Shown piece after piece: positions 17,284 to 20,905 of a DNA stretch of 64,000 bases; position 1 is the first letter of the stretch; each line of letters starts with the position of its first letter. A program made the translations under genes and the position numbers. The stretch comes from an uncultured Gemmatimonadales bacterium (lineage in GTDB: Bacteria; Gemmatimonadota; Gemmatimonadetes; Gemmatimonadales; GWC2-71-9): contig CAVUAK010000001.1 of assembly GCA_963739455.1 (NCBI GenBank), forward strand, positions 1,344,001 through 1,408,000. Direction: 5' to 3'. Under the pieces are notes generated by a model, which saw only the letters and a list, made by a program, of their open reading frames with translations, was not told the DNA's origin and searched no databases.

Positions 17284-17371
17284 GGACGAACAAGGTACGG
17301 CATCGATGCCAACTGCGGGAAGAGGGAAGCGGGAAGAGGGGGTCTTGCGCGATTTCCCGATAACCTGTACT

Positions 17372-17461
17372 GTGTCTGCGCTTGACCGGGAGTCGCGTCC
17401 CAGAGGTCGTCGATCCAGAGCAGTGCCGCACGGCACCAGCAGGGTCGGCTATGGTGGCTGA
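17372..17461 (+). CDS. Putative leader peptide 1 (29 aa, Arg-rich, probably leaderless)
   Basis: GTG...TGA encodes MSALDRESRPRGRRSRAVPHGTSRVGYGG. TAACCT (17361-17366) lies 5 nt upstream. The stop overlaps the 5' arm of terminator 1. Confidence 0.45.
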   Translation: MSALDRESRPRGRRSRAVPHGTSRVGYGG

Positions 17462-17508
17462 GCCTGGCTCTCCCCCTACGACCACCGAGACGCGGCTCTT
17501 TTTGTTTT
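17460..17508 (+). terminator. Putative intrinsic terminator/attenuator 1
   Basis: Imperfect stem (GAGCC/GGCTC plus TCTC/GAGA) followed by TTTTTGTTTT. Confidence 0.5.
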
Positions 17509-17545
17509 CCGTCGATTGACGATTTCCTGATGTAAGGAGTGCACT

Positions 17546-17725
17546 GTGTCCGCGATGTCACGCAGGTCCATCCCAGCACGACCCTGCCGCTTGCATGGGG
17601 CAAAGGTGCGCACGGTCGCGCTCGCGACGGTGAAGGGGGACGTGTATGCGGACCGGCGAGCCTTGGTCGAGGGCGGTCGTGGAATTGATGCGATGCAGGT
17701 GGGGAGCGTGAACCGGGGGCCATAA
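17546..17725 (+). CDS. Putative leader peptide 2 (59 aa, ends NRGP-stop)
   Basis: AAGGAG SD (17534-17539), GTG 17546, TAA 17723-17725. MSAMSRRSIPARPCRLHGAKVRTVALATVKGDVYADRRALVEGGRGIDAMQVGSVNRGP. Confidence 0.65.
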   Translation: MSAMSRRSIPARPCRLHGAKVRTVALATVKGDVYADRRALVEGGRGIDAMQVGSVNRGP

Positions 17726-17760
17726 GCGGCCTGGGTTCGGCTCCATCGGGCGAGAGGATC

Positions 17761-17802
17761 GCCCCACCTGCGCAGAAGATGCCGGGTGGGGCTTTTTGTT
17801 TT
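17761..17802 (+). terminator. Intrinsic terminator/attenuator 2, with competing antiterminator 17695-17704
   Basis: GCCCCACCTG...CGGGTGGGGC stem followed by TTTTTGTTTT. GCAGGTGGGG (17695-17704) is the exact complement of 17762-17771. Confidence 0.8.
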
Positions 17803-17817
17803 CGGGAAGAGGAGTTT

Positions 17818-17830
17818 CGCTCTTTGACAA
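17818..17830 (+). promoter_or_regulatory. boxA antitermination element (NusB/NusE type)
   Basis: CGCTCTTTGACAA versus rrn boxA TGCTCTTTAACA. Lies just past the terminator and before the tRNA array. Confidence 0.7.
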
Positions 17831-17849
17831 CCGAAGGATGCGATGAAAA

Positions 17850-17913
17850 GACGTGATGACGTGAAGACGTGATGACGTGATGACGTGATGACGTGATGAC
17901 GTGATGACGTGAA
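17850..17913 (+). repeat. 8 x octamer GACGTGA(T/A)
   Basis: Direct reading. Same family at ~18088, ~18542, ~32683 and (reverse) ~44251. Confidence 0.95.
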
Positions 17914-18006
17914 GGAACTGCAGGCTGTGGCCGACGCGCGGATGGCGTTCTCATGCGAGACCGCGACTCCCGGATGGGGCGTCATTCGTTCGTCGTGCCA
18001 TTTCCT

Positions 18007-18078
18007 GAAGGCGTTGCGCAATGGGAGCGCGCCCGACTGTCTCTCGGGAGGGTGCGGGTTCGAATCCCGTCGGCTTCG
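18007..18078 (+). tRNA. tRNA-Asp(GTC), atypical, no encoded CCA
   Basis: Acceptor GAAGGCG/CGGCTTC (one G-G mismatch), D stem GCGC, anticodon stem CCCGA/TCGGG with loop CTGTCTC, T-loop TTCGAAT, G73. Confidence 0.8.
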
Positions 18079-18112
18079 TTGGTGCCGGACGTGAGGACGT
18101 GAGGGGTTATCC

Positions 18113-18185
18113 CAGGTGCGTAGCTCACTCGGCAGAGCGCGGGGATGTGGCCCCCGAGGAGGTGGTTCGAATCCGCCCCACCTGA
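18113..18185 (+). tRNA. tRNA-like gene with His(GTG) anticodon and irregular acceptor stem
   Basis: D stem GCTC/GAGC, anticodon stem CGGGG/CCCCG with loop ATGTGGC, TTCGAAT. Acceptor CAGGTG[C]G/CCACCTG needs a bulge. No G-1:C73. Confidence 0.65.
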
Positions 18186-18191
18186 TGTCAA

Positions 18192-18266
18192 CCGCCCGTA
18201 GCTGAGGCTGGGTCAAGCGCCCGTCTGATACACGGGAGCACGGAGGTTCGATTCCTCCCGGGCGGA
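18192..18266 (+). tRNA. tRNA-Ile(GAT), no CCA
   Basis: Acceptor CCGCCCG/CGGGCGG, anticodon stem CCCGT/ACGGG with loop CTGATAC, T arm GGAGG-TTCGATT-CCTCC, A73. Confidence 0.85.
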
Positions 18267-18277
18267 CTGCAGCACAA

Positions 18278-18350
18278 TCCTCGTAAGCATTGACGCGTGA
18301 TGCAGCGGGCTCTTAACCCGCAGAGCGGGGTTCGACTCCCCGACGGGGGA
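18278..18350 (+). tRNA. tRNA-Lys(CTT), atypical, no CCA
   Basis: Acceptor TCCTCGT/ACGGGGG (U1-G72), D stem GCAT/ATGC, anticodon stem GCGGG/CCCGC with loop CTCTTAA, TTCGACT. A instead of U8. Confidence 0.82.
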
Positions 18351-18353
18351 CTT

Positions 18354-18425
18354 GCTCCAGTGGCCGAGCGGCCGAGGCACCAGCCTTCCAAGCTGTGGAC
18401 GGGGGTTCGATTCCCTCCTGGAGCT
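18354..18425 (+). tRNA. tRNA-Gly(TCC), no CCA
   Basis: Acceptor GCTCCAG/CTGGAGC, loop CTTCCAA, TTCGATT, U73. Confidence 0.88.
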
Positions 18426-18462
18426 TTGAACTGCGGGGGACAGGGAACAGGGAACAGGAAAC

Positions 18463-18534
18463 GCGCGGATAGCTCAGCGGGAGAGCGCCGGTCTCACATA
18501 CCGGAAGGCGCTGGTTCAATCCCAGCTCCGCGTA
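18463..18534 (+). tRNA. tRNA-Val(CAC), no CCA
   Basis: Acceptor GCGCGGA/TCCGCGT, TAGCTCAGCGGGAGAGC, anticodon stem CCGGT/ACCGG with loop CTCACAT, TTCAATC, A73. Confidence 0.9.
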
Positions 18535-18593
18535 TCGTCATGACGTGAAGACGTGAGGACGTGAAGACGTGAGGAAACCGAAAGGAGGGTCAG

Positions 18594-19820
18594 GTGAAGA
18601 TCTTTGGAACGCACGACGACGAACACGCGGGCCCAGCTCGCCACAGGTGGCGGAGCGGGCCCGGAAGGTGGCGCTGATGGCCGACGGTCACGTGGGCTAC
18701 GTGATGCCGATCGGTGGAGTGGCGGCCTACGACAACGCGGTCTCGGTGGTGGGAGTGGGGTTCGATATCGCCTGCGGCAACGCCGCGATCCGGACCGACC
18801 TGACGCTGGCCGACCTGGGCGACACCGGTGACGCAGACCGCTCGAGCCTGACGAATCTGGCCGACGAGATCGCCGACACGGTGAGCTTCGGCGTCGGCCG
18901 GAAGAACCGGGCCGACGATGCGCCGACCGATCGATCCGCTGTTCGAGGACGCCGCGTGGGACGCCGTGCCGGCCAAGCATCGCCAGGCGCTCAGGACCAA
19001 GGCGCGCCAGCAGCTCGGCACGGTGGGAAGCGGCAACCACTACGTGGACGTCTTCGCCGACGAGGCGGGAGCGCTGTGGGTCGGCGTGCACTTCGGAAGC
19101 CGGGGATTCGGTCACACCGTCGCCTCGAACTTCCTGGCGCTGAGCCAGGGCAAGGCAAGTGGGGCGATCGGGCGCCCGAGGTCGAGGTGCTGCTGTCGCT
19201 CGACCAGCCGCTGGGTCACGACTACTGGGCCCTGATGGAGCTGGCGGGTCGCTACGCCTACGCCGGCCGGGAGTGGGTGGCCCGGAAGGTGGTCTCGATC
19301 CTCGGCGGGCGGGAGCTGGAGCTGGTGCACAACCATCACAACTTCGCCTGGAAGGAGCAGCACGAGGGCGAGGAGCTGGTGGTGGTGCGGAAGGGAGCGA
19401 CGCCGGCGTTCCCGGGTCAGCTCGGCTTCATCGGCGGATCGATGGGTGACGATGCGGTGATCGTGCGGGGCGCCGACGTCAGGAGATGCAGCGGTCGCCG
19501 AGACGCAGCGAGAGGCGCTCTACTCGACGGTGCACGGGGCCGGGCGAGTGATGAGCCGGACCGCCGCGGCCGGCAAGCGGAACCGGAAGACCGGGGAGAT
19601 CCTGACGCCGGGACGGGTCACGCCCGAGATGATGAAGGGCTGGATCGCGGAGAAGGGTGTGGTACTGCGGGGCGGAGGGCTCGACGAGAGCCCGCAGGTC
19701 TACCGCCGGCTGCCGGACGTCCTGGCGGCGCAGGGCGACACCATCGAGGTCCTGCACACGCTCCGGCCGCTCATCGTGGTCATGGCTGGAGCGAATGAGT
19801 TCGATCCGTACAAGGACTGA
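18594..19820 (+). CDS. rtcB: RNA ligase RtcB (several apparent frameshifts)
   Basis: AAAGGAGG SD plus GTG. Motifs across frames: LMADGHVGYVMPIGGV, VGFDIACGN, QLGTVGSGNHY, VHFGSRGFG, HNHHNFAW, VRKGATPA, GGSMG, HGAGR, DESPQVYR. Confidence 0.9.
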
Positions 19821-19940: not shown

Positions 19941-20015
19941 TGCTCCGTGGCCGAACGGATTCAAGGCACCCGGCTTCGACCCGGGAGATTGAGGGTTCGA
20001 CTCCCTCCGGGGCAT
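19941..20015 (+). tRNA. tRNA-Arg(TCG), atypical, no CCA
   Basis: Acceptor TGCTCCG/CGGGGCA, D loop with GG then A20, anticodon stem CCCGG/CCGGG with loop CTTCGAC, T arm GAGGG-TTCGACT-CCCTC. Confidence 0.82.
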
Positions 20016-20076: not shown

Positions 20077-20578
20077 ATGTTGCTGTGCCTGGTATACAAC
20101 ACGACCGGAGAGCCGATCGAGCTCGTGCCGTCGCTCATGGGCCTCGTGCTTCACCTGCGGGGCAAGGCGGTGATCCTGGAGACGGTGCCGGGGCGGTTCG
20201 CGCGAAGCCCGCGACTCAGTCTTCCCGCTGCCGGCAAGCGTAGTGCTGCGACAGCACCGGCGAATCGGGTCACGCGTGGCGGCCCTGACCAACGAGCACC
20301 TGTTCCTGCGGGACGGGCACCGGTGCGCGTACTGCGGGCGGCATCGCCGGGAGCTTGGTGCACGGGAGCGACTGACCCGTGACCACCTGGTGCCGCGGTC
20401 AAAGGGAGGAGCCGACACCTGGCTCAACGTGGTAACCGCATGCAGTTCGTGCAATCACGAGAAGAACGACAAGCTACTGAAGGATGCGGGCCGGAAGCCA
20501 CGGGTGGATCCGTGGGAGCCTTCGCGAGGCGAGCTGGTGACGCGACGGCTGTCGGCTCGACAGGCCACAGTGGCATGA
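20077..20578 (+). CDS. HNH endonuclease (McrA/COG1403-like), one apparent frameshift near 20230
   Basis: SD GGGAGG. RDGHRCAYCG, TRDHLVPRSKGG.DTW.NVVTACSSCNHEK. Confidence 0.85.
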
Positions 20579-20590
20579 AAGGAGACGACA

Positions 20591-20905
20591 ATGACAAGCG
20601 CCCGAACAAAGCGAGAGGAGGGATCGGCGGAGATCACGGCAGGCAGCTACTTCGTGGTTACGGGCGCGCACTTCTCGGCCTGGGTGAGCACGGAGATGGC
20701 CCGCCACATCGAGGCTTGCCTCGACGCGACGCCGCGTCCGGAGTGGATCGCGTTCGTCGACCTCAGCGGAGCACGCATCCGCCTCCGAAGCGGGCAGATC
20801 CAGTCGATCTGCCAGAGCACGGTGGAGCAGCGCCAGGTGTATCGTGACTTGTGGCGCGCGCTGCAGCAGGAGAAGCAGGCCGATCGTCGGCCCGACGAAT
20901 ACTGA
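20591..20905 (+). CDS. Small hypothetical protein, 104 aa
   Basis: AAGGAG SD right after the HNH stop. No family recognised. Confidence 0.65.
   Translation: MTSARTKREEGSAEITAGSYFVVTGAHFSAWVSTEMARHIEACLDATPRPEWIAFVDLSGARIRLRSGQIQSICQSTVEQRQVYRDLWRALQQEKQADRRPDEY

Follow-up and report, generated by a model that had tools for sequence, protein, structure and literature searches.

A candidate two-gate RNA leader upstream of an RNA-repair and tRNA-array operon, conserved in Gemmatimonadota

In mycobacteria, efficient translation of the uORF upstream of whiB7 makes a rho-independent terminator form, and impaired translation leads to an antiterminator and read-through (PMC10274678; this and the other papers cited here were available in part, and all comparisons refer to the available parts). 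Attenuation by a leader peptide under ribosome-targeting antibiotics has also been proposed for PA5471.1-armZ (RtcB-like) of Pseudomonas aeruginosa (PMC12057347). The cyanobacterial trn operon, or L-array, which is induced by translational stress, contains a tRNA array, rtcB and an HNH gene, with an adjacent dps-like gene (dpsA) (PMC8421152), and rsr-yrlBA-rtcBA, an operon for RNA repair, includes Ro60 and small RNAs (PMC7790460, PMC4201824). Synthetic STARs are RNAs that act in trans, permitting elongation by binding to an intrinsic terminator's 5' half (PMC5648800); that antisense RNAs can induce antiterminators is noted in general terms in a review, the available part of which describes no example arranged like the present leader (PMC6524683).

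The locus considered here lies in a stretch of 64,000 nt (the window) from an uncultured Gemmatimonadales soil bacterium (genome G000), and all features described are on its forward strand. A ribosome-sensing attenuator had been predicted at 17534–17802 from the letters of the window (the original prediction). Compared with homologous sequences, this attenuator makes up one half of a larger leader, conserved within Gemmatimonadota, with the order promoter, terminator T1 (17388–17508), 59-codon uORF, terminator T2 (17761–17802), boxA and a 75-nt rod RNA (17927–18001), followed on the same strand by a six-tRNA array, rtcB, tRNA-Arg(TCG), an HNH gene and a 104-aa ORF. The promoter, T1, boxA and the rod RNA were all absent from the earlier description; it was the comparison with G006, G008 and G009 that exposed the promoter, T1 and a rod whose loop is complementary to T1.

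Like the whiB7 leader, this one has a long uORF of variable sequence and may amplify its output by positive feedback, but the feedback at whiB7 is exerted by the WhiB7 protein on its promoter, whereas here the candidate effector is RNA and its target a second terminator (PMC10274678). It shares with PA5471.1-armZ a leader peptide before an RtcB-type gene, and differs in its upstream T1, rod RNA and tRNA array (PMC12057347). Its gene content recalls the trn operon; control there is by promoter direct repeats and the repressor TrcR (PMC10272220), here it would be by a leader, and the words 'attenuat' and 'leader' do not occur in the available part of the trn operon text (PMC8421152). In the rsr-yrlBA-rtcBA operon, which this locus resembles as an RNA-repair operon, a protein, RtcR, senses broken tRNA (PMC7790460). 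The rod/T1 pair would work as STARs do, but STARs are engineered, start from a linear toehold and are made from a separate promoter, whereas the rod is natural, would be seeded loop to loop and is encoded behind the terminator that it would target (PMC5648800).

Taken alone, the T2 part (gate 2) is very probably a further example of the known uORF attenuators. Two terminators in tandem, combined with a complementary RNA encoded in the operon, are at least a new arrangement, and no description of the leader was found in the main texts of the open-licence literature. If trans-antitermination is true, the system would be categorically new, a natural STAR in series with a uORF attenuator, giving switch-like or bistable induction without a protein regulator before RtcB, Hen1, Ro60 and tRNA-array operons. 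Controls of RNA-repair and tRNA-array operons in the available parts of the surveyed papers use proteins (RtcR, TrcR), while this phylum seems to use RNA throughout; such an all-RNA leader widens the ways in which bacteria sense translation damage.

Leader architecture and homologous loci

A sigma70-type promoter is predicted at 17345–17373 (−35 TTGCGC at 17345–17350, 17-nt spacer, −10 TACTGT at 17368–17373). The same spacing is found in G006, G008 and G009, and in homologues TTGACA/TTGCGC-N16-18-TAnnnT lies upstream of the T1 motif. A promoter-consensus scan gave no match at 17345–17373 at its threshold, and the start site used below is predicted from sequence. Neither T1 nor T2 was listed by a simple terminator scan, their loops or interiors being beyond its limits, and Rfam 15 returned no covariance-model match at E up to 5 in 17340–18001, which includes T1, T2 and the rod (at gathering score, tRNAs were the sole matches). 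Downstream of T2, a boxA-like element (GCTCTTTGACAAC, 17819–17831), which we take to bind Nus factors, agrees in 12 of 13 nt with an element upstream of the 16S gene of G000 and is retained in several tRNA-array homologues. A tandem repeat of GACGTGAT (17850–17912, 7.9 copies) lies beyond it and is not present in G008.

A scan for T2 only gave 120 loci, and examination covered 80 of them, which had long flanks. The T1 arm was found 293–527 nt upstream in 32 of these 80; since 31 of the 32 record titles name Gemmatimonadota (the other is Kofleriaceae), the leader is assigned to that phylum. Pooling gave 65 candidates, from which L104, L112, L291 and L300 were dropped by hand (no T2, rod or U tract), leaving 61 curated loci; 58 of these have T2 and 52 the rod motif (L316 and L185 were missed by the filter). 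In metagenomes, scanning for the promoter together with T1 yielded 120 loci, 114 of them distinct; the T1 3' arm and U run were present in 100 of the 114, and the long loci had T2 in 44 of 57 cases and at least 40 open codons in 37 of the same 57. In all these tallies the homologous loci are related, and the counts overstate the number of independent events.

The 13-mer GGGAGTCGCGTCC has matches in 118 of 401 genomes of the class, a tally that includes one unpublished genome whose match is outside the locus set; most of the matches are due to chance and lie inside genes, and a reversed control also matched in many genomes. Unpublished genomes contribute to tallies of this kind and to no conclusion beyond them. 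A DNA search with the whole region returned mostly relatives from the same genus (8 of 101). Over this region G008 has 89% identity, and G006 and G009 keep the promoter, both terminators, boxA and the rod. The T1 motif is absent from the rtcB loci of G048 and G050, and no such leader was seen when their upstream DNA was read. Nine further loci (Gemmatimonadota or unassigned) combine a uORF-like leader and T2 with neither T1 nor rod. Exact motifs also occur in L194 and L200, records titled Kofleriaceae and Thermomicrobiales, where misbinning or transfer is possible.

The uORF and terminator T2

The elements described in the original prediction were recovered. The Shine–Dalgarno sequence AAGGAG (17534–17539) forms a duplex of −7.7 kcal/mol with the 3' end of the genome's own 16S rRNA and precedes a 59-codon uORF (17546–17725, GTG to TAA, no Pfam match), which ends NRGP-stop 35 nt before T2. 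Within the uORF, the antiterminator strand (GCAGGUGGGG) occupies 17695–17704; this segment, GCAGGTGGGG, is the exact reverse complement of 17762–17771 in the 5' arm of T2, and a perfect match of this type of at least 10 nt arose in 29 of 5000 shuffles. T2 is a strong U-tailed terminator (stem 17761–17792, −24.9 kcal/mol, U tract 17793–17802), with TTTTTGTTTT directly 3' of the stem and the conserved sequence CGCCCCACCUGCG..GGUGGGGCG. In the antiterminator fold an inner hairpin (17706–17741, −19.4 kcal/mol) places the TAA stop in the 6-nt loop of a GGCC/GGCC plus GAACC/GGTTC stem, as had been claimed, and stop-in-loop hairpins of a similar kind occur in G006 and G009. Folding of both conformations, proposed as a check of the prediction, gave an antiterminator pair probability of ~1.0 in RNA ending at 17785 and of 0.09 once the full terminator is made, so that the choice at T2 is predicted to be kinetic.

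Support for a uORF-controlled switch comes from the family. A stop codon 26–45 nt before T2 together with at least 45 open codons was found in 55 of 58 homologous loci, compared with a mean of 8.7 (maximum 15) in shuffles and 14 in the reverse complement; an SD-led ORF precedes T2 in 44 of the 58 (shuffles 10–25). The antiterminator covaries with the T2 arm: the T2 core CCTGC is accompanied by GCAGG in 42 of 50 loci, CCTGT by ACAGG in 8 of 13 (ACAGG is found in 6 of the 50 CCTGC loci) and CCCGC by GCGGG in 3 of 4, a tally that omits 6 of 77 loci without a stop in the window searched. It is this conservation of stop and frame, with the compensatory arm changes and the downstream genes for RNA repair, translation and efflux, that supports the switch. 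The leader thus has the attributes of a whiB7-type attenuator, namely an SD-led uORF ending just before an intrinsic terminator, a conserved antiterminator within the uORF that is exclusive with the terminator, and downstream genes of ribosome or RNA stress. Judged from sequence, T2 is very probably a ribosome-sensing uORF attenuator of this type, working independently of the peptide sequence.

We infer the following direction of regulation. A ribosome passing through the uORF close behind RNA polymerase would melt or cover 17695–17741, and T2 would form; upon failure of initiation, or a stall before about codon 46, 17695–17704 would capture the T2 5' arm and transcription would continue. Past T2, boxA would probably recruit Nus factors that assist transcription of the structured tRNA array. 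Which peptide the uORF encodes would be irrelevant. In the folding model the antiterminator is lost only with a ribosome at codons ~47–57; when the ribosome sits on the stop codon, and steric effects are left out of account, the strands can pair again on either side of it (0.98), so that termination would need coupling or steric exclusion.

The original prediction had also likened the RGP-stop end to those of the SecM and TnaC arrest peptides and pointed to the uncommon arginine codons; read further, this would make arrest at either of them the specific signal. Arrest by the nascent peptide has in its favour that RGP-stop is retained in G008 and that GP-stop ends 8 of 44 predicted leader peptides; AGG and CGA are indeed uncommon (4.7 and 5.9 per 1000 codons genome-wide; the uORF has one AGG and two CGA), and the operon carries the only tRNA-Arg(TCG) call of the genome. 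However, RGP-stop itself is confined to 2 of the 44 peptides, those of the window and its closest relative; lengths and C-termini are diverse, the stop in G006 and G009 being at the same place after RREE and RRDT, and the GP residues are the coding outcome of the GGGCC hairpin stem. Between G000 and G008 the uORF shows 8 non-synonymous and 3 synonymous changes, which is near neutral, and the stop changes from TAA to TAG, the AGG codon is lost and the frame is kept despite a 6-nt in-frame insertion. In the last 45 codons of the leaders neither codon is enriched in frame (AGG 21 in frame versus 32 off frame per 1000, CGA 29.5 versus 31). Finally, a stall at codons ~47–57, near the end of the uORF, would in the folding model favour termination and not read-through. 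We therefore regard an arrest-peptide or rare-codon signal as very unlikely: the SecM/TnaC class was rejected for want of a conserved C-terminal motif under amino-acid selection, and a trp/his-type amino-acid or rare-codon leader because the control codons are not enriched in frame. What stands of the earlier reading is the uORF-controlled terminator and antiterminator with read-through into the tRNA and rtcB genes; its arrest peptide does not, and it did not contain T1 or the complementary RNA.

In G008 (L042), around window positions 17681–17695, a strong SD precedes an internal ATG ten codons from the stop. The antiterminator consensus is itself SD-like, and there may be either a second, short leader or a pause at an internal SD.

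Terminator T1 and the rod RNA

T1 is a predicted long-loop intrinsic terminator (17388–17508; 3' arm 17487–17498, U tract 17499–17508; fold z = −2.44 over 17380–17520). Its 5' arm, GGGAGUCGCGUC, lies at the predicted transcript start and is invariant, with no mismatch in any of the 32 T1-bearing loci found via T2 alone. The invariant 5' element GGGAGUCGCGUCCC (17388–17401) can act as this arm or fold, at the 5' end of the transcript, into a 4-bp hairpin, GGGA-GUCGCG-UCCC (−4.7 kcal/mol), whose 6-nt loop is complementary to the loop of the rod RNA. A loop-degenerate search of 401 genomes gave 55 matches, and among the 29 loci examined no other loop occurred with this architecture: six of them have a different loop and lack both T2 and a complement of the rod type (the 25 matches that had no locus lay outside the comparison). 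Viral contigs gave 43 pattern matches, none with the architecture.

The rod RNA (17927–18001) is a helix of ~32 bp (−42 kcal/mol) with the apical loop CCGCGAC (17961–17967). Its structure is supported by covariation: in the alignment 87.8% of cells are paired (62.2% in shuffles, 30–42% in slid controls) and double changes occur at 32 of 32 pairs, the alignment being model-fitted and one of its 35 rows a reverse-strand match. From the loop onwards, CGCGACUCCCGG (17962–17973) is the complement of 17386–17397, and a 12-nt match arose in 1 of 5000 shuffles. The ACGC seed is predicted to be unpaired with probability 0.90–0.97, and the helix below the loop is weak.

The two elements occur together. 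Of the 32 T1-bearing loci, which the T2 scan had picked without regard to T1, 29 have the exact complement of the T1 arm in the apical loop of the rod, 46–203 nt after T2, and the rod motif is present in 41 of 45 metagenome loci. A genome-wide search found the rod in 18 of 32 T1-positive genomes, in each case at the locus already known, and in none of 80 genomes without the T1 13-mer, the latter under stricter filters. The motif is lacking in 9 of the 61 curated T1 loci, which keep the T1 arm unaltered; six genomes with such a rod-less locus gave no rod at any other site, in a search that failed to detect known rods in eight genomes. In 45 of 50 loci the rod pairs with the T1 5' arm more strongly than the T1 3' arm does. 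The Watson–Crick CGCGAC is kept in 52 of 52 rods, whereas the T1 3' arm uses G-U in 28 of 48 loci (13 of the 61, unassigned, were left out). Some rods mismatch the GGGA part (CCCC, CACC, CCCG), leaving a kiss of 7 bp. The core of the T1/rod pairing is invariant on both sides, and no covarying variant pair was found.

Since the rod is made after the decision at T1, any effect of it on T1 must be in trans, and since removal of the 5' arm can only open T1, such an effect would be positive feedback gated by T2. T1 (gate 1), upstream of any ORF, would dampen basal transcription. The rod would be the first product beyond T2, and the nascent 5' hairpin has a loop to which the open loop of the rod is complementary; the favoured role is that accumulated rod would kiss new transcripts, withhold the T1 5' arm during the 30–100 nt before the 3' arm is made and so open T1. 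This positive feedback would operate only while ribosomes are impaired. Kissing-loop contacts have precedents in plasmid antisense RNAs, and, as the STAR mechanism requires, the rod offers an accessible complement of the terminator 5' arm that is stronger than the 3' arm. That the rod antiterminates T1 in trans by kissing, as a natural STAR with positive feedback, is nevertheless a tentative proposal, to which we give slightly less than even weight; for the whole model, in which a two-gate RNA leader controls an RNA-repair and spare-tRNA operon, our judgement is evenly balanced. If the rod opens T1 in trans, the pair would be nature's equivalent of an engineered regulator and would amplify by feedback with RNA alone, and with a target of ~110 nt and an RNA of 75 nt it is small enough for reuse as a synthetic part.

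With T2 as the ribosome sensor, the rod could instead act in cis, protecting its own 5' end or guiding processing of the tRNA/rtcB precursor by RNase III or RNase P, with T1 a fixed, leaky damper. Such a role would fit the finding that the rod, wherever detected, follows T1 within one predicted transcript, and boxA with tRNA arrays recalls the handling of rRNA-type precursors. In the finished transcript, however, the T1 stem sequesters the 5' arm, and equilibrium cofolding gave no exchange: the rod brings no gain over completed T1 (−102.6 versus −102.6) and little over nascent RNA. Moreover, the rod also precedes plain protein genes without tRNA, and a loop contact of 7–11 bp is short for an RNA processing stem. 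We consider a cis role unlikely, if well short of negligible.

Another explanation is that a protein or host RNA binds the invariant 5' hairpin and antiterminates T1, BglG/RAT being the model for hairpin-binding antitermination, and that the rod serves as decoy, timer or additional site. The absolute invariance of the hairpin without covariation, and its persistence in rod-less loci, are what such a factor would predict. A host RNA partner was sought: rRNA and tmRNA have no contiguous match to the T1 arm, and CGACTCCC, an 8-nt complement of the arm, occurs in the T arm of 2 of 61 G000 tRNA calls (18278–18351 and 19941–20015), both in this operon, which speaks for such a partner, but in only 7 of 102 tRNAs in nine array loci. 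The tRNA T arm as partner was rejected, the match being 8 nt in 2 of 61 calls only and the invariant C opposite the G of the rod being left unexplained. The rod, furthermore, has the complement of the hairpin and not a copy, and no protein is common to all loci (a small family is present in 18 of 61, and G000, which is 83.7% complete, gave no TROVE match). A hairpin-binding factor thus seems distinctly unlikely.

Lastly, the T1 arm and its complement might be DNA inverted repeats (inversion or mobile-element ends) with no role as RNA, given exact inverted copies 300–720 bp apart and the patchy distribution of the locus. Since the inner segment is always in forward order in the curated loci, the complement lies in the loop of a covarying hairpin and no recombinase was found among the 85 downstream proteins scanned, this is a far-fetched explanation.

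A bacterial Y RNA (YrlA/YrlB) was also tried as an identity for the rod and rejected, as the motif GNCGAAN0-1G (taken from the available part of PMC4201824) is absent from its consensus and there is no Rfam YrlA match. Ro60 may nevertheless bind the rod in members other than G000. In L142 (1185–1587), YrlA-like matches below gathering score lie downstream of the rod and before a TROVE gene, and L194 (1312–1372) has a weak tmRNA-like match.

Downstream genes

The tRNA array (18006–18534) comprises calls for Asp, His, Ile, Lys, Gly and Val; with tRNA-Arg(TCG) (19941–20015), the sole such call among 61 in G000, it amounts to six plus one, versus 14 in G008 and 12 in G009. Between them, rtcB (18594–19820) is spread over several reading frames in this assembly (PF01139 in three), and the HNH nuclease gene (20077–20578, profile match) has one frame change. 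Both genes are intact in G008 and G009, and rtcB of G006 is also split; the splits are either assembly indels or decay. The 104-aa protein (20591–20905, no Pfam match) belongs to an unnamed family of ~100 aa that recurs behind the leader, with homologues in 18 of the 61 curated loci; it is single copy in G000, is often encoded by the first gene after the rod, and has Atlas matches that are Gemmatimonadota hypotheticals.

Among the 85 downstream proteins scanned were RtcB, TROVE/Ro60 (10 of the 85), HNH, Hen1, EF-Ts, DksA/TraR, Usp and HPF, and many were without assignment. TROVE follows the leader in several homologues. T2 occurs without T1 or rod in L164, L182, L202, L224, L170, L242 and L195, before genes that we take, by eye, to encode MATE pumps, Hen1 and an EF-Ts paralogue, and before a gene pair that includes a DksA-like protein, which suggests that the T2-only loci form a wider ribosome-stress regulon. 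The leader would mark this regulon and place the unnamed 100-aa family in it.

The spacers of the operon contain repeats of GACGTGAT and GACGTGAA (17850–17912 and 18542–18575) as well as GGGAACA repeats.
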